Below, piece by piece: positions 10,874-64,000 of a DNA stretch of 64,000 nt (positions are counted from its first letter, which is position 1; each line of letters begins with the position of its first letter). The notes under the pieces were generated by a model. It made no database searches and was not told where the DNA came from. It saw only the letters and a program-made list of their open reading frames with translations. The stretch comes from Owenia fusiformis (taxonomy: Eukaryota). Location: assembly GCA_903813345.2 (NCBI GenBank), contig CAIIXF020000001.1:3782001-3846000 (forward strand), given 5' to 3'. Both the position numbers and the translations under genes were made by a program.

Positions 10874-11619
10874 GACTCATGAGAATTTCCCCATCGTAAA
10901 CCAATGAGGACCTCTATCTTTGAAGGGCCACATCACAACCTGGAAAAATATGAAATTAATATTAAACTGATCACAATGGTATAGTCTTGGGTATGATATA
11001 CTCTGGACAGACAGATAGTGGGCTTTGTTATACCACCACTTTGTTGAGATAATAAAGGCATACTTATACAATCTCTATTCAAATTTTTGGAGGTGTGATC
11101 CAAATCAGAAAATTGGAAAATGGACACATTTATTTGAAATTTACATTAGATGGTTATGTTAGCATGATCAATACGAGAGTATCTACAAGCTTAAATTGCA
11201 TAGCATGTGAGAAATATTGGAAACCTAGAAACAATGACAAGTGGAAATTCAATAGATGATGAATTTACTAAATATACTGTATTATACAAGATTTTACTTA
11301 ACCCAGGGTCCTCACCTTGAATTTTTATTGAACACATTTTCAATGAAATGACCAAATATTTCATGTTACTACATCACCAAATAACAAGCTATAATTTGAT
11401 CAAATCTAAAAGCTAAAGATTGAATCTTTTTTGTGAGTCAATCAAACCTACCCCCCCCCCTCCATACACCCATCACCCACCCTCAGCTTATACTAATTAA
11501 GAAAAACAATGATTTCTTGAACAAGATTATATATAGTGTAAAATTATAGAGTAAAAACCTCTCAAATCCACCACTGTGACCGCCCAAGTGTTTGGATCAG
11601 CAGGTCAACGCAGGTTAAA

Positions 11620-21271: not shown

Positions 21272-29691
<8,420 letters not shown>

Positions 29692-29959
29692 GTTGAATTT
29701 GAAATCGAGGCCGCACTCCGAAAAGACTCCTTCGACGAAACTACAGTTGTTTACATATTAAATTTCAATATTACTATATGACACACCGGATTGATACGGT
29801 TGAATGACACACTTGACTTAGTCATTAGGCCAAGCTTTGTATATTAATGAATTAGAAAGTTAGACAACCTAGATTTCAACTTGCTTTTCCAAAACTTTAG
29901 ATGTAAAATATTTCATAAAACTTTTATAACTTCTAAGAGTTCCGAAAATACAGTTCAAC
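29692..29959. promoter_or_regulatory. Bidirectional promoter shared by CARM1 and EXOSC3
   Basis: The two ATGs point away from each other and are only 268 bp apart, so both TSSs very probably lie in or overlap this interval. Confidence 0.8.
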
Positions 29960-32900
29960 ATGGAACATGTGGGAAAGATCTTTATGCCAGGCGATGTTTT
30001 ATCCAATTTACAGGCTTCACAGAAGTCAGGAAAGGTTGTGTTGGGACCAGGTTTGAAGTGCGATAATGATTCAGTATTTGTTAACAAGCCAGGAGTTCTC
30101 AAACATAAGGAACCAAATTTCTACTGGATTGACAGCCATCAAAAAAAGGTGAAGTGAATATTGTTTTGTTTTGATTTACTGCAAAGAAAATCCATCCCCA
30201 TTCTATGTGTACCAATAAACAATATGTTACTTAGGAGAAAAAAATGAACCAACCAACTTTCGCCCTCTAAACTATTTTTAGTCTAAACAGGGGGCAAGGG
30301 ATCAGGAACCTGCGACGCGACTTATGCCTGGCACAACCTAGTTCAACATCGTTAAACTCAATAACGGCGTTATTTATTTTTTAAGAATTTTCTTGGGGCC
30401 GTTATTGAGTTTAACCTCTTTGCTATTCTTTCCATTGATGCAAGTTTTGGATCCACCGAAACCATTTTTCCGCGATAACATGCAACTGATACTTGACAAC
30501 AATATAAAAACACATAACATCAAGCGATTCAACACAATATTATTGTATTAAATGGTCATTTATACGAGTAAAATTAGGTTAAACTTACTAATCTCTAAAA
30601 TGACATTTCCGCATGTCCGTCATTGTGTCTGTTCGTCCCGGGTTAAAATTTAAACTATTGAAACGAAATTGTTGTCAAATAGATTGATAATTATCACGCG
30701 ATTACTCGGGATAAAATAACCATTTTTGAGGATAGCAGGTATCTTTGATTTAAGGAATAAATAATGATAGGCCATTCAATATGGTGAAATTCAGCACGAG
30801 TTGGACAGAATGTTGTACAAAGCACGAACCGAAGGTGAGTGCATTTGTACTAACATTCTGTCCAACGAGTGCTGAATTTCACCATATTGAATGGCCTATC
30901 ATTATTTATTCCGATTCAAACATAAAAATTAGTAAAAGCCGTGTCTGTGGAACGGGCATGAAGGAAGAATACGCATGCTGTCAAGATGCTGAAGAACAGC
31001 TATCCCCAGACAGAGCCCCAGATGTGCAGCTGAGATGTGACGTCACTCAAAACAATGCAAATTGCAGATTGAATAGAGCATGGTCGTGCATCTATGGAGA
31101 ATTAGAGAACGTTCTATATTGGCTATGCTGCATTCTGATTGGTTGAGAAATTCGAATAGAGCACGGTCATGTTTGAATGATTTATATAGCGCTTGTATAC
31201 ACATAAAATAGTTATTAATTGCAAACCTACTGTTTGTTGATGCAGTGTCTTAATGACGGCTAATTCCTGATACGATTTGCAATATCGATGTTACCGGAGC
31301 TGACCGATATTTTCGTAAAATTCCAAACCTGTCTCCAATATTTTCGTAATTATGCATCAATATGGTCTAAAGGAGATACGGGATGGTGTGTATGTATTTA
31401 TAAGGTATGTATGCATGCTTGAATGACATTCTTTATGTAATATTACCATGTTTTCGGAGTTTAATTAGTTCCGCTTGTCGGAACCTGCGGAACGATTAAA
31501 TTAACGCATCAAGGGCAAAATGATCATGGAGGTTAGACCTAGCCGGGGCCATAAGACATGTCAGATATGAAACGAGGCCCAGGCTAGGTCTAATGTTGTT
31601 GGACTAGGCACAACCATCACCATGTTACTACTTTTTTCAAGGCCTGACTGCGTCGCTAACATGCTAAATATAAGAGTTAGCTGACGTTTGGGAGTCTGAC
31701 TTACCTTCTAAAGGTTAGAACCCGAATCTTAATGAAACCATATCACCTTTGTTCCGTCAACCATGGAGCATTTGCCACAACATCCAAGAGGTAAATCATG
31801 GATCGAGAAAATGAATGATTTCCTTGTAAGTTCCGGAAGTTTCAATACGAAAAATTACCGAACATATGTGAAAACCGAATATTTGTTCGTTGTTTTCACG
31901 ATTTACAGGTTCGTTTGTTCTTCAATGTTTTGGTCTAAATTATAAAGCATCACCAACAGGTCTTAGTCTTACTCTATTAATCGACTAATACAGCAGACGG
32001 CTCATATTTCTACGTAGCATTTCATTCAGACCAATAGTGGGAGTGTAGATCACGCAGTTTCGTTCGTTGCGTACTTCACTTGAAATTGGTAATTTTAGAT
32101 ATTGACTACTTCACTTAGCTTGGCGGATGTAGAACATTGCTTAATATTCTTTTAATTTTCACACCAGACATGCTTGGTTGACACGTCAACAAAGTAAAGT
32201 TCAAGGGTCAATGCGTTATTTCGTGATAACTACAACGCCTTCCCGGAAGTCAACATTGATGAAAAATGAAAAAGTCGGAAAAGCATTTACGCTAATTTCT
32301 ATCAAATGCTATGTTTATGCATCATCATCGACGCAACAAAGGTGATATGGTTTCATTAAGATTCGGGTTCTAACCTTTAGAAGGTAAGTCAGACTCCCAA
32401 ACGTCAGCTAACTCTTATATTTAGCATATTAGCGACGCAGTCAGGCCTTGAAAAAAGTAATAGTTGCGTAAGGATCCTACCATGACAGTGGTAGTGTTGT
32501 CGCGATGTGCCATAATCGTACATCGATGCATCGGCAATTTTCAGTAGTAAACATCGATGCACATCGCGATGTACATCGAGAAAAAGTCCGAGAAAAGTGC
32601 ACTGAAATACCGAACGCTAATGCACTAAAATACCGAACATCCGGTACATCCGGGAACTTCTAGTAAGGGTGAAATGAAAGTAAAGTAATTTTTTAGATTA
32701 ATGGTTCATTTCGACTAGCTAAAACAGTTTTAAAGCGAAAGAATATCAGAAAACATTGGAAAATGAAATAATACATGAGAAAGATAAGCGATTTGCGTCA
32801 AAATAAGATAAGAAAGGGTGATTTTTAGCAAATTAATTTTTTTTAAAAACATTGATGTTTTGTTTCAGACATCGATGCATCGCGAGAATCAGCTTTGGCG

Positions 32901-35900: not shown

Positions 35901-38900
35901 TTCTGATTTAATAAAATTTCTTTGTATATTATGCCCCATTATCTTCTGTTTTTAGTATGTGCCAACAAGAGGGGAACATGTACTTGGGGTAGTGACCAAT
36001 CGCATGGGAGATGTTTATCGTGTTGATATAAGAGGAAGTGAACCAGCCTCACTCTCATTTCTCTCCTTCGAAGGGGCAACAAAAAGAAATAGACCTGACA
36101 TCAAGGTAAAGATTTAGTCCAGATAATAGATTTCATTTTGAAAAATATACATATTATAATATGACATACTCTTTGCAACAGTCTGATTTCGCTTCATCTA
36201 CACTTAGTTTTAATACTAGCCTCTGTATTCCTGGGATTATTACATGTACTTATGGGTAATTCTGGCAACAGAGTATTTGTTATATACTGATATAGAAGAA
36301 TAAATAGTTTGAGCCATATTGCTATAGTCTTCCAACTTTTTTGTGGATTGTATTTGGTGGTTGGTATAATTGGGGCTATATGGACACCCTATACAGGGTG
36401 TCAAAAAACAATGGCACTCCCCCCCCCCTCTATGTATATATTTGTACTTCTCTCATCTGCAGATAGGAGATCTTGTATATGGTAAATTGCTCTGTGCCAA
36501 CAAAGATATTGAGCCTGAGATGGTATGCATCGACAGCACAGGGAGGAGTAACGGAATGGGCGTCATAAGCTGCAATGGTGGCTTCATGTTTACATGTTCG
36601 CTAAACCATATACGCAAGTAAGTATTCACATGTACGAGTGTATAGAGTGCTTGCTTTAATGGTGATACACAAATATGAATTTGGTCAGCTTTTTAAAGGA
36701 CTTTTGTTATCCCGTGAATGAAGTTCTGTATGGACATTGAGAAGCTATCCTTTGTTTGTACAGGTATGTTCATATTCATCCCTCCATCTGTTTGGCTGAT
36801 AACTAATATAACAGTGGTCATGTTTTTGTTAAGTTGAACCTTGATGATTGAAGGCCCATTCATTTACATTGAACACAAATCTTTCCCTGATTTAAATCAA
36901 CAGATTTCAATGGTCCTTTTTCCATATAGAGCTTTGAAATCTCGTTAAAATCTCGTTTTTAAAGAGATTTTGGGAGATCTGCATTTTAACCCTTAAACAC
37001 TGCTACCCACCTAATTACACAGACGTATCGTCGGTGTATCATGGCGGAACTTCCTCCGGGACTAGGTTTCGGTAAGATTTTTTTATTTCCCGATTTACAC
37101 CTACTTATAAGTCACGTTGTGGATAATAATTTGGCTCGAAATTTAAGGAAGATAGTCTAGTTTGAGAATGTGTCGATGGTTTTAGGTTTTATATGTTAAC
37201 AAAGACACAATTCACGTATTTAGTCCCTCGCTTTTCTTACACTGACGAACGACCAATATCAGTGTAATATTGGCAATATTAACTCATTCAATACTGGGGC
37301 AAAAAGCACTATAATACTGACGATATTTTGAAAATTGCCATATATGGTACCTCTGAAATAATATATATTGTATATACATGGGCATACATATATAGTGTTA
37401 TATATCATTTTAAAGCATATGATATACTCTTTCAAAATGAATAGTCTTTTTAAGTCCAATTTTATAAGTTGTCATGGTTACAAGATTCCCAAAAATACAT
37501 TGGGTTTGTGCTTGGACTTGATATCACGTCCTTAGTAGTCAACGTATGTGCTTTATGACGTCATATCAAGTCCTTAGTAGCCGATCGTCAGTGTAAGAAA
37601 AGCGAGGGACTAAATACGTGAATTGTGTCTTTGTTAACATATAAAACCTAAAACCATCGACACATTCTCAAACTAGACTATCTTCCTTAACTTCGAGCAA
37701 AATTATTATCCACAACGTGACTTATAAGTAGGTGTAAATCGGGAAATAAAAAAATCTTACCGAAACTTAGTCCCGGAGGAAGTTCCGCCATGATACACCG
37801 ACGATACGTCTGTGTAATTAGGTGGGTAGCAGTGTTAAAGACGAATTTTTTTTTTAAGTTGATCCAAATGGAATTGTTTCTTAAATCAAAAAATTAAGTT
37901 ACTCTGGCAATACATTTACATGTATTCTAGCCCTACCCTTGCCCTACCAATACCCATGATGCCATCTATTTTCCATTTATATGGAAAAAGTTCAATTGAC
38001 CAACACTGTTTTCGTAATGCATACACATAACATAATAAATAATTAATTTGGTCATTGGCGTCATTTTCGCTCTGTATCTCAAGCTAAGTTGAGAGTGTGT
38101 GTAAATACAGAATATATATTTAAAGTCCCCGTCTAAAGTTTGAAAATATTTTTTTATCATTCATTTACTATTTGTCATGACTTAAAAAGTTATTTTAGAG
38201 ATTTTTGAAAAAAAAAATTTCTTGAGAAAAAAGTTGTGAGCATTTCATTTCTCAAATATTCAAATTTCCCGCCATTTTTCAAAAAAAGTTGAAATTTTTT
38301 AATTATCAAATATTTCTTAATGCATTTCAAAAAAGATTATCTTTTTAATACCAATGCAAAGATTGATCAAAGGACACACTATTTCAAGAATAAAATGCCA
38401 TATTTAATGGGCCACTTCAATGTTTTAGCATATCAAAAATATTTGAAACATTAGTGATGTCACTAAGGTAACAAAAACTTTTTGAAAAAAATTGAAATTT
38501 TTTTTTTTTCGATGTCAATCTTTTCTAAATATGCTAGACTTCAATAATAAACCAATGTTGATTGTCTAAAGGCCCGGTCACACCGCCCGGATGTGCTGGA
38601 GCGTTCCTTGAACGTTGAAAAAATTCATCAACGCTCGTCAACTCGCACAAAATGGGGGAAAAAAACAAAAACACGGGCATTGGATTAGCGGTGCACCGCT
38701 GAAGTCGGCGTTGCTTTAGTGTTGGTTAAGCGGTTGCGAGCGGTAGCTAGCGTTTGTTTAGCGGTAATGCGAGCGTTGGTATAGCGGCGTTCTGCGCATG
38801 AGAGCGTTGCTTCGGCGGGGGTATAAATAGCAGCAGCGTTGGTTTAGCAGCATAACGCGTTTGACTACTGGGAAATTATTTCAAGTGGGAAGTGTTTAAG

Positions 38901-41900
38901 AGTAAAGAACTTTATTGGAATTTGTAACTTTAACAAAAGTCCTTCAAGGATTAAAGAAGAAATGTTTTAAATCTAAAGTGCTTCTATTAATGTAATATGA
39001 CATTAAGAATGAATAACATTACAATTTTCTTTAATAATCTCTCATATCATTTCAAACAAACATATCACAATTTAATCGTTGCATTTCCATTACTTGGAAC
39101 CGATTTACGTTCAAATTGCTTTAACAATGTCAAATAACATTTACAGCAAAGCAATAATCATGACGCATGACAAATTTTTGCATTGCTGTGCGCGCATCAA
39201 CTTTTTGTATAATACCATGACGAGTGCAACATTTTACAAGCTGCGCAGAAAATTCACAGATAATTTATTGAATTGCTTGACGTGAAAACACTAGGTATAT
39301 ACTATATTTGAATAAAGGTCTCAGTAAAAGTCTATTTGTATTAACATTTAATGAAAAACAAAAATCGCATAATTCACCTTTTTAAAATCCAAAATCACAA
39401 ACTTTGAGCGCTTAATTTAGGAATTTACAATGCAAAAAATTGAAATGCCAGACATGAATATATATCAAATGTAAAATGCACAAGTGTCTCCACAGTGTTC
39501 TACACAGTGGTGCATTTCTCCACGTATTTATAGCCAAATTCTGGTCCCACTCCGACACCTCTATACCAACGCCAAAGCAAAGTTCATCGCCGCCATGGAA
39601 CGCTGCGACAACGTCCGACACCGTTCCAACAACCCCATGTACGCTGATAAAACGCTAACAACCGCTCCACCGACGTTTGTGCAACGTTTAATCGCCGCCC
39701 GGGCAACGCTGGCGAAGCAGCGGTGGTCCAGCGTTAAGATTTCTGCGTTGGTCTAGCGGATTCAAGCGTCCACGAACTTGCGTCTAGCGGTGCCAAACTT
39801 TGACTGGGCGTTGGTGGAGCGGTGATAAACTTTGCCAGGGCGTAAAATTGTCCCTTTTTCAACGGTCGCAATATTTTGAGCAGCTCAAAACTTTTGGAGC
39901 GTTAGGATGGCCACTCGAGAAACATCCGCGTTGGCCAAGCGTTTACAGCGTTGCTTTAACGGATGCCAACTTTTGTTAAACGGTGGTGAACGTTTACGAG
40001 CGTTGATGATTTTTTTCAACGTTCAAGGAACGCTCCAGCAACGTTTAGGCGGTGTGACCGGGCCTTAACCAGGTTAAAAGGAAGAATATATTATGTTTAA
40101 GATATCATTGTACCATTGGTTTCTATGAGAACTAAAATTTTGAAATGCATTTTTCTCAGAACCATTTTCATGAACTGGTAAGTTCATTTCTCGCTTATTT
40201 ATGAACTGATTTTCTTAATTTTTTCGGCAAAAAACATTTGAGGATGAATGCTATGCATTGGTATGAATTGTGGCTAACTAAAAGATATTTGTGACCTTTA
40301 AAAGTTAGTTTCAAATAAATTCACAAATTTTGGAACAAAAAGTCTATCAAGAACCACTTTTTGAAATTAAAAAAAAAAGTTTCACATATCACACTTTGAT
40401 AACATTGGGTAAGACTACAATATAAGCCAAAGTGGTTTAAACTTTATACGGGGCCTTTAAGTCACATGGACCAATCAGGTTGCAGGGAATTTCACCATCA
40501 TGGAATAAACTCATTTATTAACTAGAAAACTGGCTGAAGTATAAAAGATGTAATAAGATGCAATCAGCTATTTTATAAAATATGCACCCAGTACTGAAAG
40601 ATCTTGAAGTCTTCAACCATACAATTTTCTCTAGCTTCAGTTATAGGTATCCAATCCAATTTTGAGATGTTACGTTTATATGAAAATGTAAATGGCATAA
40701 AAGGGTGTATATTCATGAAATTAAAAAAAGTTGATTACTGAAATCCAGCTTGAAGTTGGAGAAAAGTTATGGCCTCCTATTAACATTACAGTTACAGAAG
40801 TTTGCTAGTTACAAAGTTTATTAAATAGTTCATTCATGAATATTTACAATAAGGAAATAAATTATGAAAAATCTATATCTTATTCAAATAATAAAATTAG
40901 GAACATATAGTACTTCTTACATTTTACCCTCTTTACGTCTAGTTCTTAAATATAAATTGAACACATACAATTAGCTTGTTAGATTGTTAGAGCATGCCGA
41001 CATCAGTTAGATAACCCTTCAATATCCAGGCCCATAGCCAGGAGGGGGTTCGATGACCCCCCCCCCCACCCCCGGCCACAAAATCTTTCAAAATCATGCA
41101 GTTTTTCATCATTCTGAGCATTTTTTAAGTGATATTGGCCATTTTTGGACCATAATTGACACAAGTGAACCCCCCTGGAATTTTTCAAAAAGTGAACCTC
41201 CCTTGGCAAATCCTGGCTAGGGGCCTGAATATCTGTATTGATCACACTATAGTCTGTTCAATGATTGACTGATATTTACAGTGTTTTTGGTTATCTACAT
41301 GGTGGTTATCTTAGTAGAAACTTCCTTATGTCCATCTGGTCCAAACTTATATATATTGGTATGATTCCCCGCACCAACCAATCTATCAATGTGACATTTT
41401 TTCGATTGGTCAAGACTGAAAAGTTGAAATTGTGAGTCTAAATCTGATGATGGATTAGATAGCTTTTTGAAGCAGACATTTGTACGGCTTTTATCACTTG
41501 GGTCATAGGACAAATAGAGATCTTGATTCAGAAATGAAACCAAATGCACAAGATTTGATGGGGCACCTTCTACCGGCTTTACAACAAAGAACCTTGGGTC
41601 TTCTTCCATACGATGAACATCTTTACGGGGAGGTTTGCCTCTGATCAGTGTGACGGGTGAAGATTCATGCGCTTTGTAACTTTTTTGAAGTTGCAGGAAA
41701 ATCTCCTTAAGGGTGCAAAGCATCATTATCCTTGTAGGACAATGGTTAGGTTCATCCATACCACTGAATGTGTAACATACAAATCGGAAAAACACTTTAT
41801 TTTTGTCATATGTCAACGGAGCCAAACAAATTTTATCCCCATTGAGTTTCAAGTAGTTGCCGGTTTTTATATTTTTCAGTTCAATAGGGATTGCACCATT

Positions 41901-44900
41901 CACTCTCATTATGCCATCTATATAATCAAATGTTAATGCGAAATCTTGAGTTATATCGAGTTCCTCACTGTGGACAGTAACATCACCACTGGATGTGATT
42001 TGAATACTTATTTTAAGTCGTATATACTGCTCAGTGGGTATAGGGATATGATCATTATTATTGACAGTTTCTCTACATAGAAGAATGTCAAGTGTTGTTG
42101 GGTTAATGTTTGTCATTGTATCGATTAAATGGCTGTGGTTCATTTCCTTTAGTGATACTCCCATGAACTCTATCAGCTTGTCGCCCTCTTTCAACCGCAT
42201 CTCATCAGCCAAACCACCACCTAAAACTTCAGTAATTTTATGACTGTACACTTGTTGAGCCTCCATGTTGGTTTCAAGTTTAGCGAGTATGTCCAATGTC
42301 TTGGTTTGTTGATTGTTTGTTGTGTCATTTAGTGAAGGCATTGTTCCATCAGTATATTCTACTTCAGTACAGTTTTGTATGGGATGGTAGAGATGTATAT
42401 TACTCGAATCCATTTTGTTAATTTGGAGGATAGCACCCTTGGTGTAAGTACTGGATCTTGTAGATCTCTGAAACAGATAAGTGTTTCTATTGATACCAGT
42501 TGTCAGATTTGGCTTTTTTGAACAAAGTTCAAGATAGATATCAACAACCCTGACAAACATTGAAATACACAGCAACATTTGGCAACATATCTAAATTGCT
42601 TAGGTTCTTAGAAAAAGAAAGGTGTGTGCTTATTGGAACATGTGTGTGTCTATAAAAGCCATATGAAGGGCCATATGGTATAAATACTGTAGATTGGGTT
42701 CATTTGGCACCTTCTTTAATTTGACGAATTTGGCAAAATAGAAAAAACGCCAATTTACATCTTTACCAAAATTAAGAAAGGATCCCCGGAAATTCCATCT
42801 GGTGTATATTTCCGGATTAGATTTTACAAAATCTGAAAAGAATTAGGGTGATAATCAGAACATGTCACCCCAAATTGGCTCATTGAAGGAATGTGTGTAA
42901 CAATTTGTATTTTGTTCCAGTGTATATGGAAATTGTAGCATCTAGTGTTCGCCAAATTGAAAAGCCGCAAATATGACAAAAATGGCAAAATCACCAAATT
43001 GAGTAGTACCAAATTAACCCAATCTACAGTACATGTTTATATCCTTTAGAGCAATGTGTTATCTTTATCAAAACCATGTCACTCCCCTAAATGCTCTTTA
43101 TCATGCAGAGCTTCTTAACTTGAAATGCACAATCAACAATCAACATGTCCTTGAAGTGTTTACTTTGAATTGACCTCATCCTTCAAAATCGAGCTTCACT
43201 GCTGTACAACATCTATGGAATGAATTATAATATGGCTTGGACCAAGGATGAAGTGACCTGACTTTCAATGAATGAGAGGTCATTATAGCATCCTTCTGCT
43301 ATCAAAATCAATGTGATCTACTTAAATATGATAATGAATCTGCAATACTTACCCAAGAATTTGTTTGTTGTCTGATTTCTCACTGAGTGTTCTCTTTCCT
43401 GATTGTTTGTTGTGCCGATCCTCTATTTTGCTGATCCTCTATTTTCCTGGTTCTCTATTATTATTCTGGCCAACTAGCTGTTCAACTAAAAGTGAAAAGT
43501 GTAGTTAAATCTCAAATCAGAATATGCATGTTATGTAGTCATATATTTATATTCAAATTCAATTCATTCACATGAGTAAATCAATATTGAAGTTTATTTG
43601 ATAAATACCAGTATTTAATGTGTTTTTTTACTGTGCATTCTTAAGAAGCGGGTTGCTCATCTAGAGTTACACAAACCGTCTCAAAGTTCATGTTCACAAG
43701 CTTCTTTGCTCTTAACATGTGATAAGGCTCAAATGACATGAATAGTAAGGTAATTACAATACCAGTATGTATGCTTTTAAGCGATTTGAAGTGTTTTTTT
43801 TGTTTACCTTCTTTTATATTTTTTGCTTGAATTAGATTTAATAAGGGTTAGTGAAGGGCATTTTTCAAAATATTTACACATCTTTCGGAGGATAGGTTGG
43901 TTAAAGTAGTTAAAGAGAGAATCAGAGATAGTGAGCAGCCTAACAAAAAATTGTTTCGATTTTAGAACATATCTGGCTTATGTCATTCCTTTTCATGTCT
44001 ATTTTCTATAAATCCCCAAAGTGCACACTTTATTTCAGGAAAACTAAAGATTGTTGCAATAATGTGTTATTTTTCTATAAGAATGGTTACCATTCTTATT
44101 ATTTGGGATAATTTAAACATTTTTCACCCATTTTTGCACCTTGAATCCATTATAACTTCACCAATTAGTAATATATCGAAGATCTTTTGGGAGATATTGT
44201 ATTTGAGATTGTAAGCAATAGATTAGTAGGTCAATTGGACATGTTGCTTGTAATTTTGTCACCCCTATAGATCTGATTCTGCCTTTAATTAGAAATTTAA
44301 ATCTGTTTCAGACCAACCTATCAAATGTACAGGGTGTTTCATAATGACCATCCCCCCATCCAGAGCCAATCCTAGATCATGTGGCCCCATAATCTATATA
44401 CCATGATAAAGGCTATTCAATTCTGGACTTATGTGCAAAATTTTAGCATGACTGGTCAATGAGAACATAATTTGTAAACTTATGTTGGATAGTCACTTTA
44501 CCCTCAGTTTGTGTGATTTGTGGGTACCATTTCTTATAGATTTAAAGAGAGGGACATATTGCTATATAATCCATTGAATCACTTAGAAGTCTCTTGGTAT
44601 TTCTTTGATATATTTTTATACTTTTGTCTTTCAAATATTACCGGGATATATCCTCAGCATATCCTCAGGCACATGGCTAATTTTGGAAAAAATGTAGCTT
44701 TCAGATCATGCTTAAGGTAAAATGGGTACCTTATGTAGAAGCATGAAGCAAGTTGTTAAGACTGTTGAGCTTACTCAAAGTTATTTAAATAAGTCTAGAA
44801 TTGAACAAGCTTTCATATGATATATAACATATGCTGGTATGCTATTTGGGATTGGCGGTTGATGGGGGGACGGTCATCATGAAACACCCTGTACAATCTA

Positions 44901-47900
44901 ACATACTCCAAAATTTAAATATATACTGTTCATCTGTTAGTTAGTTTGTCCACGCAAAAATTTGGCTGATGCCATAATTTTCAGTATTCAAAAAGCCACT
45001 ATTTTATTATTGATAACTCAGATACTGGTTGGCAGTTTAATATTATCAGGGATGGTGTCCAGTCATCAACTTTCGGTATTTTTTCAACTTGTTTCACATT
45101 GGCAAATGTTTTTTTCAAAATCATCTACAAGTTATAAGAAGTTCAAATTTGACTTCAGATTTGAGATTTGACCTTCAATGACCTTCTCAAGGTCTAAAAA
45201 AGTTTGTTTTTTTCAATTTGCTACAAATTGACCAATTTTTTTCTTCAAATTCCTCTACAAGTTCTCAGAAATTCAAAACTAAGATTGAACTAATAATATT
45301 GTGAGCAACTAGGTGGCAACATTTTCTCATGTTGATACCTTTTCATAGTCTTGCTTTAACCCCTTATGCCCCCCCCCCACCTATACACCATACCGCCACA
45401 ACAAGGGAAGGTGAAGTGAAATGTTTCTGAATATTAAGTACATTTATTCCTGATAAATTAATTAATTTAAAAAAAAGAAAAATAAACAAATAAGAAAATT
45501 TTAAGATGTAAAGATATAAAAAGATTTTAATATGTAGAAATAAATAGATTTTTCCTTTTGGCAAGATCGAAATATTTAACTGTACTTACCATTCAGAATG
45601 TGATCTTTGACTGAAATGAGATATCAGTAAGATTAGCTTTATTTAAAGTGTAGAGAATGTTAAGTGAGTCATGCACTTCCTGTGTATTACTGAAATTTTC
45701 AAATTTTATTAAGTTATTTTTCTCTTCCTGGTCCATTGTCTCTATTTTTCTTTCAAAATTTTTAATCTTCTTCCTGGTTCAAAGTCTTAAAACTAATTTC
45801 TGTCACCCAGCCAGTATGGAAGATGAGAACACTACCCTATTGGTAAATAAAGAAGAGCTTATTTAAATGTGTTTTTAATAACTTCACTTCTTTTAAGTAT
45901 GAGATCTTTTGAAAAAGGCACTTATCAAATCTGAATCTGCATGTGAGAGAGAGCGAGCTAATGAGTGTGTCACAGAGCCTGATTTAGAACTACCTGGTTT
46001 ATGACACGCATTATTAGATATTTACAAATTCCAAGCCAGTTCACTTGTCATACTAAAAAAATAATACTCCTACGCATAAATTGGTGGCTGTTAAATTTTG
46101 AATAAACTTCCCTGATTCTAAAAATAGGATTTGCATTCCAAGGGAAAAGGGAACTCTAAAATTAGCAGGTGTGACAAATATATGCATTTATAAGGTAAAT
46201 AAAATTGTCAAATATATCATGTGCTTGGATTACAAAGTTGTAGGATGCTTCATATGCCTTGCTTGCTGTGGCTACAATTGAATGAATTTTCCTGTACAAT
46301 AAAGCTAAATTGCAGAAAATTTTGATTGGCTCATTACTAGAAAATTAGGATGTTAGATCAAGGGGAATCTATATTAAATGGATGACTACAATTTCCATTT
46401 GTTAACATTTGATCTTCTGAAGAGGGAGGATTTTTTAAATATTATAGAAGTTTTCAATAGAAAGGTGTGATTCTGTTTTAAAAAACGTCAATATCCCCAG
46501 TAACATAAACCTTATTTTTCATGAGATATGATCAACATATAAACTTCCAGGTCATGATTGAATACATTCATATTAAATGTATGTATGTAATGTACTTTAA
46601 TGACTGTGAGCATTTCTTTGGTTTTCTTCAACAGTGAGGTCATCATAGTTTCAGTACTTGTACTATTAGTCCATATTCATTTACTAAGTTGATTTTCAGT
46701 CATGAAAAATATAAAAACTTCATACCTTTGTAATACAAGATGCTATTCTTTTAGTGTTCAAAGATGTGACACTTTTTGTATTTTGGGATGATTTTCCGTG
46801 GGCGTGGGCTATATTTTGAGTTTGTACGCCCACTCGGGGATTTCTGATCTTGTGGGGGCTGGGGGTATGTGCCCCAGGAATTTTTTCCAAAGACAAACTT
46901 TAAATATTCTATTCTGCTAAAACTTAATGGTTAAATATACAAATACAGAATCATCAATAAATGTGCAAACAAATTAATGCATTTTTAACACATTTTTAAT
47001 TTTTGTACCAGGCTTTCATATTGGTACTCGGTCAACTCGGACCCTAGTTAACTCGGACCCTAGTCAACTTGGACCCTAGTTAACTCGGACCCTAGTCAAC
47101 TCGGACCCAGTTATATTCAAAATAGATCAGAGGCATTTTGCTATATAAGAGGTGAAAGCAATTAACTTGCAAAATATTAAGAATATTGGAACAGTTTAAG
47201 ATATAATTCAATTCATTACTCAAATCTTTAAATAATGATGTTTATGTATATTCCTGATTGGTCAAAATAAATATTTTAAAACCTTTATACTTTTATGCTA
47301 GTTGCCTCATATGTGATCAAAATATTCTTTATAATTAAATAAGAATGATTTTGATTCATTTTATATTGACTTTATTTAGAATTTAGAATTTATCAAAAAC
47401 TTCATACCTTTGTAATACAAGCTGCTATTAATCCTCTTTTAGTGTTCAAAGATGAGACACTTTTTGTATTTTGGGATGATTTTCCGTGGGCTAGGGCTAT
47501 ATTTTGAGTTTGTACGCCCACTCGGGGATTTCTGATCTTGTGGGGTCTGGGGGTATGCGCCCCAGGAATTTTTTCCAAAGACAAACTTTAAATATTCTAT
47601 TCTGCTAAAACTTAATGGTTAAATATACAAATACAGAATCATCAATAAATGTGCAAACAAATTAATGCATTTTTAACACATTTTTAATTTTTGTACCAGG
47701 CTTTCATATTGGTACTCGGTCAACTCGGACCCTAGTTAACTCGGACCCTAGTCAACTTGGACCCTAGTTAACTCGGACCCTAGTCAACTCGGACCCAGTT
47801 ATATTCAAAATAGATCAGAGGCATTTTGCTATATAAGAGGTGAAAGCAATTAACTTGCAAAATATTAAGAATATTGGAACAGTTTAAGATATAATACAAT

Positions 47901-50900
47901 TCATTGCTCAAATCTTTAAATAATGATGTTTACGTATATTTCTGATTGGTCAAAATAAATATTTTAAAACCTTTATACTTTTATGCTAGTTGCCTCATAT
48001 GTGATCAAAATACTCTTTATAATTAAATAAGAATGATTTTGATTCATTTTATATTGACTTTATTTAGAATTGGAACCTATAGTATGTTTAAAAAGAAATT
48101 AATTCAATTTAGCCTGTTTTGTATAATGCTGTTATATTAAGTTTGATTAAGAAACCCAATTAAGAAATCTTGTATCCTCTGATAAGCATTTAATTAGGGT
48201 GTTGAAGTAAACAGAATATATAGCTAGTATTACATTGATTCCAATATACAGTATGGTGAAATGTATAGTGCATTTGTGTTTTAACAAATATTCTTTCTAG
48301 TCTGGCAGAAATATAGGGTTATTTTGACATTCAATCGTTTTCTTCGGATTACAATGTTTTTATTTTAACTTATCAACATGAATATAGGATTGGGACCTCA
48401 AAACCACCGGATGCCGGTGCGGCACCCTTGGGCAACTCTCTACAGAGCAATTCTTATACCCCCCTGATAAAATATACAGGGGGTACTATAAGACACCCTC
48501 ATATCTCAGATACTGATAAATATATTAACTTGAGATTTTCAGGAATTAGTTTTAGTATGATGCTTGACATGTATGACAAAAATCAAGAAAAAATCTAAAT
48601 CCGTTGCTATAGCAACAGCAACAGAACACTATTTGTTACCATAGAGATGCATTATTTTGCTGGTTTTCAACATTTCTTCATATAGTTGATTCTTAAACTA
48701 GTATATAGTATTACACTTGTATATAGGACACTGCATATTTTATTTTTAGTATATACATGTATATCAAATGAAATCTAATGAATTCATACAGTAGTTAGGT
48801 TGGCATATAGTCTAGACTTTGGCATTTAGAACATGCATCATAATAAAATCTAATGTAATTATACAATAGAGAGGTTGGCATAGTCTAGATTTTGGCATAA
48901 TGTCTAACTTTTATAAGCATTTGCTTTCCTCATCTGAGCAATCAGACTACTGGGGGACCCTGTATAGCTTCTGGGGGCCACTGGGGACCATCATATAGAT
49001 TTTAAAGGCACTGTGAATATTTGATTTAACATTGAATTCAATTGGATATTTCTCTAACAGTGAAATTTAATGGCCATGAAACATTTCAGATTGACAACAT
49101 CGTGAATTTTTGTCAGTGAAAATTTGGGCTTACTTATGGGGGCCACTGGGGGCCCTCGTATGGTTTCTGGGGGCCACTGGGGGCCCCTGTATAGCTTCTT
49201 AGGCCACCATATAGCTTTTTTGGGCCACTAGGGGCCCCTGTATAGCTTCTGGGGGCTCCTGTTTAGCTTCTTGGAGACGCTGGGGGCCACCATATAGTTT
49301 TTGGGAGCCACCGTATAGCTTCTGGGGGCCCATGTATAGTTTCTTGGGGCCATTGGGGGCCAACGTACAGCTTCTGGGGGCAACCATATAGTTTCTGGGG
49401 GCTACTGGATGCCATCCTATAGCTTCTGGCAGCTGCTGGGGGCCACCGTATAGCTTCTGGGTACCATCATATAGCTTCTGTGGCCTACCATATAGCTTCT
49501 TGGGGCCACTAGGGGCCCCTGTATAGCTTTTAGGGGCCACTGTAAAGCTTCTTGGAGCCACTGGGACCACCACATAGCTTCTGGGGGCTACTAGGGGCCC
49601 CTGGATATGCTTCTGGGGGCCACCATATAGCTTTCCGGGGCCACCGTATAGCTTTAAGGGGGCACTAGGGGCCACTGATTAGATTCTGGGGGCTACTGGG
49701 GACCCCTGTATAGCTTCTGGGAGTCACCATATAGCTTCTAGGGGCCAGTTGGAGCCCCTGTATAGCTTCCGGGGGCTACCATATAGCTTCTGGGGGTTAC
49801 TATGGGTCCCTGTATAGCTTCTGGGGGCTCCTGTTTAGCTTCTTGGGGACACTGGGGGGCCACCATATAGTTTTTGGGAGCCACCATATAGCTTCTGGGA
49901 GCCCTTGTATAGTTGCTTTGGGCCATTGGGGGCTACTGTATAGCTTCTGGGGGCTACCATATAGCTTCTGGGGGCCACTGGATGTCATCCTATAGCTTCT
50001 GGGGCCTACCATATAGCTTCTTGGGGCCACTAGGGGCCCCTGTATAGCTTTTGGGGGCCACTGTAAAGCTACTTGGAGCCACTGGGGACCACCATATAGC
50101 TTCTGGGAGCTACTAGGGGCCGCTGGATATGCTTCTGGGGGCCACCATATAGTTCTCCGGGGCCACCGTATAGCTTTAAGGGGGCACTAGGGGCCACTGT
50201 ATAGATTCTGGGGGCTACTGGAGGCCCCTGTATAGCTTCTGGAAGTCACCATATAGCTTCTAGGGGCCATTTGGAGCCCCTGTATAGCTTCTGGAAGTCA
50301 CTATATAGCTTCTAGGGGCCATTTGGAGCCCCTGTATAGCTTCTGTGGGCTACCATATAGCTTCTGGGGGCTACTAGGGGTCCCTGTATAGCTTCTGGAG
50401 GCCACCTTATAGCATCTTAGGGCCACTGGGGGCCCTGTATAGCTTCTGGGGCCACTGGGGTCCATGGTATAGCTTCCGGGGGCCACTGGGGGCATTTTTT
50501 ATTTGAACCTTAAAAATTAATCTATTTTTGCCAGATTTGGTGGCTGTCGAGGTGGGGTAAAATTAAATTATAATTTTTTTTTCAAATTCATGTGACTATT
50601 TATCTCTAAAGCAGCACTTTTTTACCTAGGGAGCATAACCTTTTCAAGAAGAGTTATTTTGGACCACCTTTTTAAAGAAAGTGAAATGTAAAAACCTGAT
50701 TATTAAGTGCTGTTACCATAGCAACTGAAATGTTAGATATATTACATAAACCATATGATGAATTATTTCATCTTTACTTCTAATCATGTATTTAACAGAT
50801 ATGTATATACTTCAGATGCTTTAAGAATCAAGAATATGAAGAAAATTATGAAACTCAGCAAAATAATGCATTTCTACGGTAACAAATTGTGTCTATTTCT

Positions 50901-53900: not shown

Positions 53901-55187
53901 AATTAACCGGTTTCATGTAAAATCAAACTCTTGGTTATTAAATATTTAATCCTACTGGTATATGATTTCACAATTAGGCTGAGTGGTTTATGAGTGAATC
54001 GAAAGTGTCAGAATTTTTTCACAATTTTCAACCATTGTTTGGTCTAACAATTATATATGATTAATGTTTTATAAAAGACTTCTATATTTCTTTTCATTTT
54101 AATGCTCAAACTGAGGAAAAATATATAAAAATACATCGGTCCAAGTTGACTAGGGTCCGAGTTGACTAGGGTCTGAGTTAACTAGGGTCCGAGTTGACTA
54201 GGGTCCGAGTTAACTAGGGTTCGAGTTAACTAGGGTTCGAGTTGACTTAATAAAGCAATGTGGAATCTATGCATGGTATGTTGAATATTTAATAAATTTT
54301 TAATTCATAGCAACATTTGACTGAAAATAAATATTGATTGAGAAGCATAGTCTATAAACATTTTGATTGAGTCTATATAATTAACTTAATAAAAATATGC
54401 TCTCTTGCTCCATAGATACCAGCAATTTCATTATGTTACAATTACAAAATATATTCCATTCACTTCTCTACTTTCGCTTTTGATATCTAATGATTCTTGA
54501 ACTCAAATTGCATGCTCTTTCCCCTTTAATAGAAATTTGGGGTCAGCCCATTTGTACTAAATGAGGACTCAGTACAAATAAGGAATGTTCATACATGGTC
54601 ATATGGTGCAACATGACATTTTTTGACATTTCATATATTTATTTCATAAACCTGGCTCTTAATATAGGATATTTTCATATTATTTTGTAAAAAATGAATG
54701 TCACCTCCAAAAGTATAGTATTGGTCAATATAGTCTCTAACTTTTTCTGGACAGTGTTCATTGGTTGGTGTCTGTAACAAATGGCAGTCGGCATCTGTAA
54801 CAAATGGCAGGTGGTGACATTTTGCATGTTCATGCCTTGTTCAAGCACTTCACTTCATTCCATAGCTGCTATATAGCAGCGAAGCCCGATCTTGAAAGAT
54901 GACACTGCTCTTCATTTCATTTCATTTCGTCTGGTATATATTTATTTAAAATGAACATTTTTTCTAATTTCAGGATTCTGTCCCCACAGTTCAATCTACT
55001 GAAGACACTAGGAAATTCTTTGCCGTTTGAAGTAGCAGTCGGCATGAATGGTCGGATATGGGTGAAGGGAAGATCTATTAAAGAGACAATAGCTATTGTT
55101 AATGGACTAAATAGTGTGGAATATATGGACACTAATGAAATTAAAGTAATGTGTAGAAAATTGTTAGACACTTTGGCAGGTTTCTGA
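29960..55187 (+). CDS. EXOSC3: Exosome complex component RRP40
   Basis: Exons 29960-30148, 35956-36105, 36463-36617, 54974-55187 give 235 aa. Motifs [49 protein letters not shown]. Intron 3 is 18.4 kb. Confidence 0.96.
30339..31606. mobile_element. Non-autonomous TIR element with 9-bp TSD
   Basis: TSD ggcacaacc at 30330-30338 and 31607-31615; TIR tagttcaacatcgtta / taatgttgttggacta; contains a 159-bp palindrome at 30754-30912. Confidence 0.75.
31631..32457. mobile_element. MITE with ~120-bp near-perfect TIRs and TA TSD (Tc1/mariner-type signature)
   Basis: cttttttcaaggcctgactgcgtcgctaa..aaccatatcacctttgtt is mirrored at the right end; TA on both flanks. Confidence 0.85.
32492..32939. mobile_element. 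hAT-like MITE
   Basis: 15-bp TIR tagtgttgtcgcgat / atcgcgacaacacta; perfect 8-bp TSD gacagtgg (32484-32491, 32940-32947); subterminal atcgat repeats. Confidence 0.85.
32998..33835 (+). mobile_element. HINE/DINE-1-like element, family B
   Basis: ttatcccaccgaacgaagttcgaggggggatat hairpin start, (tccg/ttcg)n microsatellite, then several ~130-155 bp units each containing gataactcaaatac and aaaatggcggccat. Confidence 0.7.
36998..37834. mobile_element. MITE with ~250-bp near-perfect TIRs, TTAA-like flanks
   Basis: cactgctacccacctaattacacagacg..actgacga (36998-37248) mirrored at 37585-37834; right flank ttaa, left flank ttaaa. Confidence 0.85.
38124..40456. mobile_element. Kolobok-like non-autonomous element (TTAA TSD) hosting a nested Harbinger-like element
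   Basis: ttaa|agtccccgtctaaagttt ... aaactttatacggggcct|ttaa. Confidence 0.65.
38570..40065. mobile_element. PIF/Harbinger-like non-autonomous element
   Basis: ~70-bp TIR aggcccggtcacaccgcc..gctggagcgttccttgaacgttgaaaaaa; 3-bp TAA TSD; agcgtt/aacgct-rich subterminal regions. Confidence 0.85.
41027..41227. mobile_element. 201-bp MITE with 6-bp TSD immediately 3' of the nested gene's stop codon
   Basis: TIR caggcccatagccagga / tcctggctaggggcctg; TSD aatatc at 41021-41026 and 41228-41233. Confidence 0.8.
41295..42413 (-). CDS. Nested gene: PDZ domain + putative IL-1-like beta-trefoil protein (~372 aa, no signal peptide)
   Basis: Longest ORF in the window. Splice acceptor tttcag lies just before 42467 and the first ATG in the exon is at 42413. 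PDZ core [48 protein letters not shown]-terminal [36 protein letters not shown] resembles IL-1beta KMEKRFVFNK..LEFESAQFPNWYIST..VFL..TDFTM. Gene and PDZ are well supported; the IL-1 fold is a by-eye inference. Confidence 0.75.
   Translation of the reverse strand: MDSSNIHLYHPIQNCTEVEYTDGTMPSLNDTTNNQQTKTLDILAKLETNMEAQQVYSHKITEVLGGGLADEMRLKEGDKLIEFMGVSLKEMNHSHLIDTMTNINPTTLDILLCRETVNNNDHIPIPTEQYIRLKISIQITSSGDVTVHSEELDITQDFALTFDYIDGIMRVNGAIPIELKNIKTGNYLKLNGDKICLAPLTYDKNKVFFRFVCYTFSGMDEPNHCPTRIMMLCTLKEIFLQLQKSYKAHESSPVTLIRGKPPRKDVHRMEEDPRFFVVKPVEGAPSNLVHLVSFLNQDLYLSYDPSDKSRTNVCFKKLSNPSSDLDSQFQLFSLDQSKKCHIDRLVGAGNHTNIYKFGPDGHKEVSTKITTM
42687..43029. mobile_element. MITE with TA TSD
   Basis: ta|ctgtagattgggttcatttgg ... 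ccaaattaacccaatctacag|ta. Confidence 0.75.
44330..44891. mobile_element. Tc1/mariner-type MITE
   Basis: ta|cagggtgtttcataatgaccatccccccatc ... gatggggggacggtcatcatgaaacaccctg|ta. Confidence 0.82.
45060..45345 (-). mobile_element. Partial family A element, reverse orientation
   Basis: Reverse complement of the family A 5' part (aagattgaactaataatattgtgagcaactaggtggcaacat; agatttgaccttcaatgaccttctcaagg). Confidence 0.65.
46713..48071. repeat. Tandem duplication of a ~675-bp segment
   Basis: 46713-47383 and 47395-48071 are nearly identical. Each contains five 16-bp units gtcaactcggacccta. Confidence 0.9.
48298..51207. mobile_element. Academ-like non-autonomous element (TAG..CTA ends, 3-bp TSD) with ~350-bp TIRs
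   Basis: ttc|tagtctggcagaaa ... tttctgccagacta|ttc; long mirrored arms (about 48298-48665 and 50855-51207). Confidence 0.75.
48945..50493. repeat. GC-rich minisatellite (mixed ~21 and ~32 bp units) inside the Academ-like element
   Basis: Dozens of variants of gtatagcttctgggggccacc(a)/actggggg. Confidence 0.9.
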
Positions 55188-61815: not shown

Positions 61816-63360
61816 TTAGTGACATTTGGTTACAAACCTGGCTGCTCTTCTCTGTACCTGTTCCAACATATCAATATCTTTTTGTCGGTATGGATCCCAT
61901 GCCGAGCTGGCATACTCTAAATTAGGCCGGACTAGTGACTTGTACGCCTGAGCTTTCACTTTTTCAGGGCATTGATGGAGGTTGCGCCTGAGGAAACCAA
62001 GCACCTTATTGGCTTTGGATACAATAGTTTGAATATGTGTAGTCCAGCGTAAGTTATTAGTGATGTCAATACCTAGGTATGGGATGTGTGTTACCGACTT
62101 AAGGTTTTCCCCTAGCATGGTGTAATTGTGAATGATAGGGGATTTACCTTTGTGAATATTTAGCACATAGCATTTTGATGGATGGAATTTCATTTGCCAT
62201 GTTGATGCCCAGGAGACCAGTTTATCAAGATTCTCCTTTAGTGTTAATGCATCTGGCTTGCTTTCAACTGTCATGAATAAAAGGCTGTCGTCAGCAAATA
62301 GCTTAAGACTGGCTGAGGATGATAGGTTATTGCCCATATAATTGATATAAACAAGGAAACAGAGTGGTCCAAGAACTGTTCCTTGAGGAACTCCTGATTT
62401 TACTGGAGTTTTTGAACTTGATTCGCCATCGAGCACTACCTGTTGTGATCTTCCCACAAGCCAGGATCTGAACCAGTTCAAGTTATTATTGCGAATTCCA
62501 TAATAGTCGAGTTTGAGCAAGAGGCGTTCGTGAGCCACCGTGTCAAACGCTTTGGAAAAGTCTAATACCAACATGTCTGTTTGTTTATGGTTGTCGAGGG
62601 CCCAAGCTATATTCTCTATTGTTTGACAAGTTGGGTTTCACATGAGTGCTTTGACCTGAATCCATGTTGGAAGTTTACTAGAATTTCATAGAGGTCAAAG
62701 TGGGCAATAATATGATGGAATATAATATGTTCCATTATTTTACATGGAACTGACGTCAGAGATACAGGCCTGTAATTCACAGCCTCATCTCTTCGTCCCT
62801 TTTTGTAGATAGCAGTAACATTGGCATGTTTCCAGTCCATAGGCACTAAGCCTTCATCGATGGACTGTTGAAAAATTATTTAAAGGAATGGCGATATGCT
62901 GTCACTGCATTCCTTCAGGACCCTAGTCGGAATAAGATCGGGTCCAGTGGCTTTTGATGGATTTAGGCCAGTTAGCAATTTGTGAATTCCTTTTGTCGAA
63001 ATTTTGATATTTGGCATTTCACGAATTTGACTGGGTACCATTGTCGGTAGAGTAGCATCCTCATCTGTGAATACAGAATTGTATTGGTCATTGAGGATGT
63101 TTGCTTTCTGGCCGGCGTCTGTTATTTCGTCGCCATCTTTGTTACGGAGCACGCTGATACCTGATGCATCTTTGCGTTTAGACTTTATGTAGCTCCAGAA
63201 GCGTTTGGTAATGCCTTTGTGCTGAACATTCTCATTTATGATTTCGCTTTCATCAATGTCGAGCAGATCGTTGATGTAGCGTTGATGTTCTTTACGAATT
63301 TCACTATGGATTAATTTCCATAGTGATTTGTATTTATGCCAATGATGAGGTTCATTTGAA
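61816..63360 (-). mobile_element. Decayed non-LTR retrotransposon (LINE, CR1/L2-like) ORF2 fragment in ISCA1 intron 1
   Basis: Three frameshifted ORFs (62880-63395, 62616-62846, 61816-62574) with KATGPDLIP, WKHANVTAIYKKG, NYRPVSLTS, QHGFR, LDFSKAFDTV, GVPQGTVLGP, LFADDS, YLGI, LVRPNLEYAS. No endonuclease domain, truncated at both ends. Confidence 0.92.
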
Positions 63361-64000
63361 CACAACACAACACCAAAATTTATGAAATTGGTCATATTTT
63401 TCGAAATATTATGTGGTTATTTACACGTCACTAAAGAATACATAGTTCAAAATCAAAATATTTCCACAAATTATTTTTTCAATATTGAATTTATTTTTTC
63501 GAGGTCTCCTCTGCCGAAGGCAGCGCGAAGTAGGAGCGTAGCAACTACTTTGCGGGAGACCTCGAACCATTGATCACGTTTGCTCCTGTAATTATTCACT
63601 TCTTCACCTCTTTAAAATGTGATTTCAATCAGTTGATCAAATCGGACTTTGACCTCAAATTCAAATATTGATATTTATAAGAAAAAATACTGACTCATTA
63701 TTATACTTTAAAAAGTCTTTCAAATAAAGTGAAATGAAGCCAAAATCAGCTAAAATTATGCAATGTCGTAAAATGGCGTTACTGGAATATGATGCAATCA
63801 CCTGTGACGTCAGACACGTATCGCCACATCATTGATCAACAACTAAACAAACAATTAATATAGACTTCACTGATTGGTTTAAATATTCTTTGCATCATTT
63901 GTGACGTCATAAACACGTTACCCAACCAACAACTAAACAAATAACAAATAGGCATATAGGTTCGTTCAGTGCCACGCTCCTGAATCAGTTATACATGTTA

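Follow-up and report, generated by a model that had tools for sequence, protein, structure and literature searches.

A stretch of 64,000 nucleotides from the annelid Owenia fusiformis (GenBank assembly GCA_903813345.2, contig CAIIXF020000001.1, positions 3,782,001 to 3,846,000 of the forward strand; referred to at its full length as the window) carries on its minus strand a gene for a 372-amino-acid protein, P0001, which is probably of the IL-1anc type, that is, akin to the ancestral interleukin-1 (IL-1) cytokines defined by Fontenla-Iglesias et al. (Nat Ecol Evol 2026; PMC13736523). P0001 combines a degenerate PDZ domain with a C-terminal IL-1-like beta-trefoil, and the junction between these two parts holds the motif DYID166↓G (the arrow follows the residue termed P1, after which a protease would cut), which, judged from its sequence, is a plausible candidate place for caspase release of the cytokine-like part. 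We put the probability of caspase cleavage after D166 in vivo at roughly 0.4. Positions are given in window coordinates and residues are numbered from the MDSSN start of P0001.

In the mechanism that we propose, P0001 would be synthesised as a leaderless pro-form that stays in the cytosol; a protease with specificity for Asp, most probably a caspase accepting DxxD↓G, would cut after D166, and the trefoil would thereby be freed from the PDZ part for unconventional release. Such a cut would leave residues 167-372, which is the mature domain of about 206 residues put forward in an earlier account of this DNA (the preliminary description), as 372 − 166 = 206. A second Asp-Gly pair named there, D22↓G near the N-terminus, is not needed in this scheme.

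Domain architecture of P0001

P0001 is built of four parts: an N-terminus (residues 1-41), a PDZ module (42-154), a stretch of residues 155-172, and a trefoil (approximately 173-335) with a private tail. The N-terminus is polar and predicted to be unstructured, with almost no secondary structure in the AlphaFold2 (AF2) models and a predicted local distance difference test score (pLDDT) below 50 (24-34 over residues 1-40). Further along, residues 58-110 align with positions 27-80 of the 81 in the Pfam profile PF00595 (PDZ; E 2.8e-4, 21.6 bits), a match that covers the beta-C to alpha-B half of the domain only, and PDZ chains in the PDB match with E from 4.8e-6. The AF2 model made from a five-sequence alignment gives pLDDT values of 56-75 over residues 42-154, the sole region above 50, and extends the module by a beta-hairpin at residues 126-153, of which 145-153 form the last strand. 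A Foldseek search of the PDB with this model returned PDZ domains only (E 5e-3 to 0.15, template modelling (TM) score by target 0.50-0.59) and nothing for the trefoil. No glycine occurs in residues 24-64, so that the Gly-containing carboxylate-binding loop of a PDZ domain is absent, and the PDZ domain of P0001 is degenerate.

Class I PDZ-binding C-termini follow the rule S/T-x-hydrophobic. The private tail of P0001 ends T-T-M (41298-41306, minus strand), where its PDZ-bearing paralog P0002 ends differently; we take this end to resemble a C-terminus of that class, and the PDZ domain of P0001 itself is without the usual Gly-containing binding loop.

Over the trefoil region the AF2 models give pLDDT values of 22-39; residues 155-372 remain below 50, and the mean over the protein is 32.2 from the single sequence and 39.3 from the five-sequence alignment. 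A profile of the C-terminal family, however, matches designed trefoils derived from FGF-1 (Symfoil) with a whole-sequence E of 2.2e-5 over profile positions 42-80, corresponding to about residues 173-212, and this match places the first trefoil strand near residue 175. All three Symfoil repeats hit one and the same query stretch, GPIxIELKxxxSGxFLKI, the first trefoil leaf, with individual E of 14-21; the match is therefore evidence of a trefoil leaf, not of membership in the FGF family.

P0001 is predicted to have no signal peptide. Its maximal Kyte-Doolittle values are 0.51 (15-residue window, first 75 residues) and 0.93 (19-residue window, whole protein), and none of the five Owenia proteins of the family has a hydrophobic N-terminal or membrane-like segment as judged by hydropathy. 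A leaderless pro-form with a PDZ domain ahead of an IL-1-like trefoil, which a caspase might cut at the junction of the two as the preliminary description supposed, thus agrees with our data and with the IL-1anc family (PMC13736523).

A candidate caspase site at D166

All detectable homologs of P0001 are O. fusiformis paralogs. There are at least three further ones, one PDZ-bearing (P0002) and two PDZ-less (P0004 and P0023). A phmmer search of 1.84 billion representatives at E<=0.001 gave 22 matches, namely the query, three relatives from Owenia and 18 PDZ proteins of a generic kind; word-index searches with P0001 and with the family profile returned O. fusiformis proteins only, and a search confined to proteins of 30-90 amino acids returned none. 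P0004 is homologous to P0001 (phmmer E 6.1e-7; pairwise 2e-15) and shares 56% identity with P0023, which is in turn 31% identical to P0001 and aligns with it in BLASTP without gaps at D166. A tblastn search of the 64-kb window with the family found no second copy.

D166-G167 is encoded by GAT GGC (41913-41918, minus strand) in the context FDYID↓GI. The stretch that holds it, residues 155-172, follows the final strand of the PDZ module, and from the site it is about nine residues to the first trefoil strand. The structural alignments of P0004 with IL-18 and IL-1 start at its residues 43-44, two to three residues before the equivalent pair A46-G47, and the site is therefore at the N-terminal edge of the trefoil. 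The preliminary description had held that this site (site 2) and D22↓G (site 1) bracket the PDZ domain over 41910-42362. Both Asp-Gly sites are indeed present, as EYTD22↓G and DYID166↓G, each with Asp at P1 and a small residue at P1', the interval is correct and equals residues 18-168, and both the Pfam match and the AF2 module fall between D22 and D166.

Four paralogs cover the region of site 2. From P4 to P1', P0001 and P0002 both read DYID↓G, whereas P0023 has DGID↓G and P0004 has ISIA↓G. DxxD↓G is thus kept in three of the four, and in P0001, as in P0023, it is the only DxxD motif followed by Gly, Ala or Ser. Both Asp of the site are gone together from P0004, which retains the flanking I, G and I; the Asp are therefore not structurally required, yet persist between distant paralogs, and this persistence, seen in aligned residues, favours a functional motif. 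Of 50,000 shuffles of P0001, 23.5% contained a DxxD with G, A or S as the next residue at any position, and 1.3% had one within residues 155-172, an interval chosen post hoc.

Cleavage at such a motif has a precedent within IL-1anc: human caspase-1 and a CARD-caspase of the sea urchin both cleave the sea-urchin protein SpurIL-1.3 at DEPD184↓G, and the substitution D184A blocks the cut (PMC13736523). CARD-caspases and GSDME have been reported in Annelida (PMC11508797).

As a separate observation, P0002 contains a further DxxD↓G, DEPD217↓G (residues 214-218), within its trefoil (FSGMDEPDG), where P0001 reads DEPN. The tetrapeptide is the same as that of the sea-urchin cleavage site.

Several observations weigh against cleavage at D166. 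The invariant residues around the site are I165, G167 and I168, not the Asp, and an invariant I-x-G-I would fit a structural turn or strand equally well as a cleavage site. P0004, one of four paralogs, has Ala at P1. Well-studied caspases are not known to favour Tyr or Gly at P3, or Ile at P2. The motif counts are at chance level: P0001 has three Asp-Gly dipeptides against 1.30 expected (P(>=3) = 0.13, 20,000 shuffles) and two DxxD motifs against 1.87 expected by shuffling, and the third Asp-Gly, GPD360↓G361, which the preliminary description does not name, belongs to the C-terminal tail, a part that is not conserved. Between P0001 and P0002, local identity at the two sites is 9/15 and 10/15, set against a mean of 7.5/15, and 15 of 25 Asp (60%) are kept. 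Site conservation is only weakly informative because all homologs are paralogs of one species. The AF2 model has pLDDT 24-47 over residues 155-172 and below 40 at D166, which is too low to judge the exposure of that residue. In the part of the IL-1anc paper covered here, only SpurIL-1.3, which is PDZ-less ('n' in Table S2), gave a cleavage product; none of three lamprey IL-1anc proteins, two of them PDZ-bearing, was cut, and no product is reported for the other sea-urchin proteins (PMC13736523). Among the scallop, mussel, oyster, brachiopod and sea-star rows seen there, inspection by eye found no DxxD↓G at the corresponding place.

Another way to view site 2, then, is that P0001 is of the IL-1anc type and that neither Asp-Gly pair is a caspase site. 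The I-x-G-I would be structural, as a tight turn or a capping strand, the Asp would be tolerated surface residues, and the protein would stay uncleaved or be cut elsewhere or by another protease; calpain or cathepsin processing is discussed by the authors for IL-1anc (PMC13736523). The pattern of invariant residues, the absence of Asp at both P4 and P1 in P0004, the chance-level motif counts, the general retention of Asp between the two PDZ-bearing paralogs and the single cleaved protein in the published assay would all be expected under this alternative. The single-sequence AF2 model, with strands at residues 161-165 and 168-172 and D166-G167 at the turn between them, points the same way, as a hint only (pLDDT approximately 25-30). 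Against it stand the retention of DxID↓G at 31% identity as the sole motif of its kind in P0001 and P0023, the joint loss of both Asp in P0004, the placing of the site exactly at the boundary of pro-piece and trefoil, and the precedent of the DEPD↓G cut. We regard this alternative as a serious possibility, somewhat short of even odds.

The probable IL-1 type of the trefoil and its relation to IL-1anc

That P0001 is an IL-1anc-type protein is a separate and more probable claim. In residues 160-372 of P0001, ESM Atlas features give IL-18 at 0.77, a lead only, as is any Atlas feature score below 0.9; otherwise the IL-1 type of this trefoil rests on the Atlas model of P0004 (predicted TM score 0.62). 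The nearest feature clusters of that model are IL-18, IL-18-like, IL-33 and IL-1 (0.88), with 184 of 256 features shared, above the 170 that is the tool's typical figure for true family members. By structure, IL-18 and IL-1 are again nearest (over 154 aligned residues, query 43-224, TM is 0.56 when normalised by query and 0.72 by target), and ricin-type trefoils rank after them with TM 0.51-0.59. The top four structural rows, and six of the seven feature rows listed (ranks 1-13), are IL-18, IL-1 and IL-33 clusters.

IL-1anc proteins lack a signal peptide and combine a PDZ domain at the N-terminus with an IL-1 trefoil at the C-terminus, whose strand 9 bears the motif (F/L)ES; some members are PDZ-less, and they occur in cnidarians, molluscs, crustaceans, echinoderms and fishes, as far as the covered part of the source goes (PMC13736523). 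The Owenia proteins share this order, a PDZ, a hairpin-like segment and then an IL-1-like trefoil, with members such as mussel MtroIL-1.2, scallop PmaxIL-1.1 and the sea-star proteins AplaIL-1.4 and PminIL-1.5, and they likewise are predicted to be without signal peptide, include PDZ-bearing and PDZ-less members and show a lineage-specific expansion. A block of the form DPRF...(F/L)ES...Y-L is also common to both. D272, P273, R274 and F276 do not vary among the five Owenia sequences, nor do L291, S293 and F294 in the Owenia alignment, and the place of (F/L)ES is taken by LES in P0004, P0023 and P0006, by LAS in P0002 and by LVS in P0001. In Table S2 of the published set, DPRF was found a short distance before (F/L)ES or a related motif in six rows, namely mussel MtroIL-1.2 (DPRFF...YFESL), scallop PmaxIL-1.1 and four sea-star proteins (PMC13736523); this comparison was a search for short motifs, supplemented by a few rows read by eye.

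Several findings count against simple membership. The PF00595 score of P0001 is below the curated cut-off (23.2 bits), and PF13180, the PDZ model used in the IL-1anc paper, does not match P0001 at all, the Owenia PDZ matching PF00595 weakly instead. At E<=10, neither P0001 nor its C-terminal part taken alone matched the Pfam models IL1, IL33 or FGF, and the same held for P0002, P0004 and P0023; with the designed Symfoil proteins excepted, neither Pfam nor the PDB gave any match to IL-1 or FGF families at the level of sequence, and phmmer gave none to the published IL-1anc members at E<=0.001. P0001 itself has LVS in place of (F/L)ES. Its coding sequence is intronless, in contrast to the three to five trefoil exons and the conserved intron phases of trefoil and PDZ described for IL-1anc genes (PMC13736523). 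In some clades IL-1anc genes are linked to IL-1R-like, GCC2, ESD or TRAF3 genes, a microsynteny that does not extend across all clades (PMC13736523); homologs of IL-1R, TRAF3, GCC2 and ESD were not seen by Pfam among the 64 other open reading frames (ORFs) of at least 75 amino acids in the window, where short exons could be missed.

Such findings lend something to the idea that P0001 is not a cytokine but a lineage-restricted intracellular PDZ scaffold with another kind of trefoil (FGF-, lectin- or actin-binding-like), its resemblance to IL-1 being convergence or noise. The want of sequence matches, the intronless coding sequence, the neighbourhood, the Atlas scores in the range of leads, the ricin-type trefoils at TM 0.51-0.59 and the restriction of homologs to one species would all suit it. 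The structural and feature neighbours of P0004, with more shared features than is typical of true family members, and the PDZ-trefoil order, leaderless form, LES and DPRF shared with mollusc and echinoderm IL-1anc argue against it, and we consider it unlikely. IL-1anc-type identity is accordingly the reading that we keep.

The Asp-Gly pair at D22

D22-G23 is encoded by GAT GGA (42345-42350, minus strand) in the context VEYTD↓GT. The Asp-Gly is kept in both of the two paralogs that have this region, with different residues at P4-P3 (EYTD and TSTD), and TDGTMPS is the same at seven of seven positions in P0001 and P0002, so that the prime side (GTMPS) is the better conserved one. Conservation of the two sites, to which the preliminary description had looked as a check, is thus mixed: the DxxD↓G of site 2 holds in three of four paralogs and the Asp of site 1 in two of two, whereas P0004 has Ala and site 1 varies at P4-P3. 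Probably site 1 is incidental or belongs to some other short motif that is conserved; a caspase cut at D22 is improbable.

In human IL-1beta, the cut at D27 is a secondary one. The covered part of the IL-1anc paper names no cleavage site that would be its counterpart (PMC13736523). The further claim of the preliminary description, that caspases cut at both D22 and D166 and excise the PDZ domain in parallel to D27 and D116 of pro-IL-1beta, finds no support beyond the presence of the two dipeptides and is the least probable of the readings considered here, since, for all that both pairs are kept in P0002, that D22 sits in a polar and predictedly unstructured N-terminus and that TDGTMPS is identical in two paralogs, the conservation at site 1 is not a caspase recognition pattern, the PDZ-less paralogs have no counterpart of it, the D27 cut is itself secondary, and the caveats on site 2 apply as well.

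The gene and its transcript

The P0001 gene is a real, transcribed annelid gene with a spliced 5' untranslated region (5'UTR). Its coding sequence is a single-exon minus-strand ORF which translates into 372 amino acids and a stop, and a protein identical to P0001 was already present among the catalogued proteins, encoded on a contig of 62.2 Mb. RNA evidence came from two stranded runs, X17 and X18, and from contigs of two older runs, X1 and X4, mapped on 40300-45300. Over 41302-42470, first mates of X17 and X18 were always on the plus strand (depth 0.06-3.7, from about 6% of each run) with zero depth on the opposite strand, as fits an RNA from the minus strand. X4 contigs with a depth of approximately 1300-2400 cover 41201-42467 and 43353-43486; in the interval between these pieces, X4 depth is 0.8-9 in three of the five bins that lie wholly within it, the remaining two having 172 and 600. 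One X4 contig (depth 2082) and two X18 reads join 42467 to 43353, and the skipped stretch begins GTAAGT and ends TTTCAG on the minus strand, as a canonical joint would.

This intron matters for the numbering of the protein. An annotated form of 427 amino acids (P0024) starts at an ATG at 42578, inside the intron, while in the spliced product of exons 1 and 2 the first ATG is at 42413, a scan of the upstream exon having found none. Numbering from MDSSN is thus supported, because the upstream ATG is spliced out of the RNA. Across 41201-42467 the RNA contigs, which leave two gaps in coverage, show no splice joint inside the coding sequence, and the only introns seen are in the 5'UTR. The intronless coding sequence suggests a retrocopy origin, against which stand the 5'UTR introns; it may be an old retrocopy that later gained them. 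A 26-nucleotide inverted repeat (42685-42710 and 43006-43031, 92% complementary, 295 nucleotides apart) lies in the 5'UTR intron and resembles a small terminal-inverted-repeat element.

Table 1. Features of the P0001 gene and protein in the window, and O. fusiformis paralogs
Feature	Positions	Strand	Evidence or remark
Coding sequence of P0001, leaderless PDZ + IL-1-like trefoil (predicted)	41295..42413	-	ORF, translation, stranded RNA
5'UTR intron, GTAAGT..TTTCAG, holds ATG 42578	42468..43352	-	X4 contig + 2 X18 reads
Non-coding 5' exon, no ATG	43353..43486	-	X4 contig piece, ATG scan
Site 1, EYTD22↓G	42345..42350	-	sequence; TSTD↓GTMPS in P0002
PDZ-like module, residues 42-154 including hairpin 126-153	41952..42290	-	Pfam, PDB, AF2, Foldseek
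Site 2, D163-Y-I-D166↓G167, DxxD↓G between PDZ module and trefoil	41913..41927	-	sequence
Beta-trefoil, IL-1/IL-18-like, approximately residues 173-335	41409..41897	-	Symfoil profile match, Atlas features
D272-P-R-F-F block	41586..41600	-	invariant alignment columns
L291-V-S293, at the (F/L)ES position of IL-1 beta-strand 9	41535..41543	-	alignment
C-terminal tail, residues 336-372, ends TTM, not in P0002	41298..41408	-	alignment
Paralog P0002, 335 amino acids			49% identity to P0001, PDZ + trefoil layout, on a different contig of chromosome size
Paralog P0004, 244 amino acids			no PDZ, short N-terminal leader, on the window's contig
Paralog P0023, 234 amino acids			no PDZ, short N-terminal leader, on the window's contig
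P0006, 166 amino acids			truncated form of P0023

Genomic surroundings

A Pfam scan of 64 of the 65 window ORFs of at least 75 amino acids, the gene's own ORF being omitted, found Roc, UIM, Neuralized, PRMT/CARM1, RRP40 and reverse transcriptase domains only. An RRP40/EXOSC3-like exosome gene on the plus strand has Rrp40_N at 29930-30154, RRP40_S1 at 36370-36618 and KH_6 at 54903-55184. Its S1 and KH exons flank the IL-1-like gene (41295-43609, minus strand), which is thus nested antisense in one of its introns. On the minus strand, Roc (7157-7579), UIM (7785-8189) and Neuralized/NHR (10313-10876, E 3e-43) matches may form one gene over 7157-10876, and 23328-28628 holds CARM1/PRMT4-like exons with CARM1 N-terminal, PRMT5-like and PRMT_C matches. 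ORFs of a non-LTR (long terminal repeat) retrotransposon reverse transcriptase (RVT_1, E 3e-24) occupy 61819-63416 (minus strand), split over at least three ORFs. At 49165-50493 there is a degenerate tandem array of approximately 1.3 kb (periods 21, 31, 52 and 104, 63-94% matches, raised GC content of 0.42), which gives long spurious minus-strand ORFs of the PQKLYGG type.

Around the IL-1-like gene, the stretches 40300-40466, 40968-41301, 43974-44307 and 45143-45300 show very high depth in each of the four runs (10^4-10^5 as contig depth), with numerous loose ends of reads; they are dispersed high-copy repeats that flank the gene. One X1 contig joins 41227 to 44331, probably via such repeats. 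The idea that the gene is cargo of a mobile element was rejected, as there are no direct repeats in 40300-45300 and the flanking high-depth stretches are dispersed repeats.

Comparison with known systems

IL-1 cytokines were long regarded as vertebrate-only. The Owenia family, if accepted, would fill the annelid gap in the distribution of IL-1anc and, if D166 is cut, would be the first annelid IL-1 family with, in P0001, the first PDZ-bearing IL-1anc protein to have a defined caspase site, extending caspase-gated maturation to spiralians. In the covered part of the IL-1anc paper Capitella teleta is the only annelid genome screened, Table S2 has no Capitella row and no annelid member is listed (PMC13736523). 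Our full-text literature searches found no paper combining annelid, interleukin-1, PDZ and trefoil, and 'IL-1anc' occurred only in that paper and its preprint; an annelid protein of this type thus appears not to be in print. The paralogs offer a natural experiment, three with DxID↓G and one without either Asp, which bears on the age of caspase-gated trefoil release. It is conceivable, though rather doubtful as a whole, that Owenia has its own expanded IL-1anc set of at least four genes, with and without PDZ, in which DxID↓G would be a caspase maturation switch and P0004 a natural non-cleavable variant, for example a constitutive or antagonist-like one. If D166 is not cut, the finding would be that of an ordinary further member of a recently described family.

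With FGF, the likeness is that the designed FGF-1-derived trefoils are the only solved structures matched by the Owenia family profile; the Pfam FGF family, however, gives no match, and the Atlas neighbours of P0004 are of the IL-1 family. SpurIL-1.3 is a parallel for the proposed cut, having a DxxD↓G upstream of its trefoil so that cleavage leaves the whole trefoil in the C-terminal fragment, as it would at site 2 of P0001. It differs in that it has no PDZ, in that its site is far upstream (fragment 185-424, 240 amino acids), and in that its cleavage is experimental where that of P0001 is predicted.

Caspase-1 cuts IL-1beta at YVHD116↓A and IL-18 at LESD36↓Y, and caspase-1 sites are of an aromatic/aliphatic-x-x-D type. 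Compared with these vertebrate pro-forms, P0001 has a PDZ module as its pro-piece and not an IL-1 propeptide, its site 2 is of the DxxD type at P4-P2, and there is no sequence similarity detectable by Pfam or in the PDB. What pro-IL-18 and pro-IL-1beta share with P0001 is a leaderless pro-form, a trefoil whose closest Atlas neighbours, as judged from the paralog P0004, are IL-18 and IL-1, and a candidate cut which, at D166, would fall a few residues before the first trefoil strand, as the vertebrate cut positions do.

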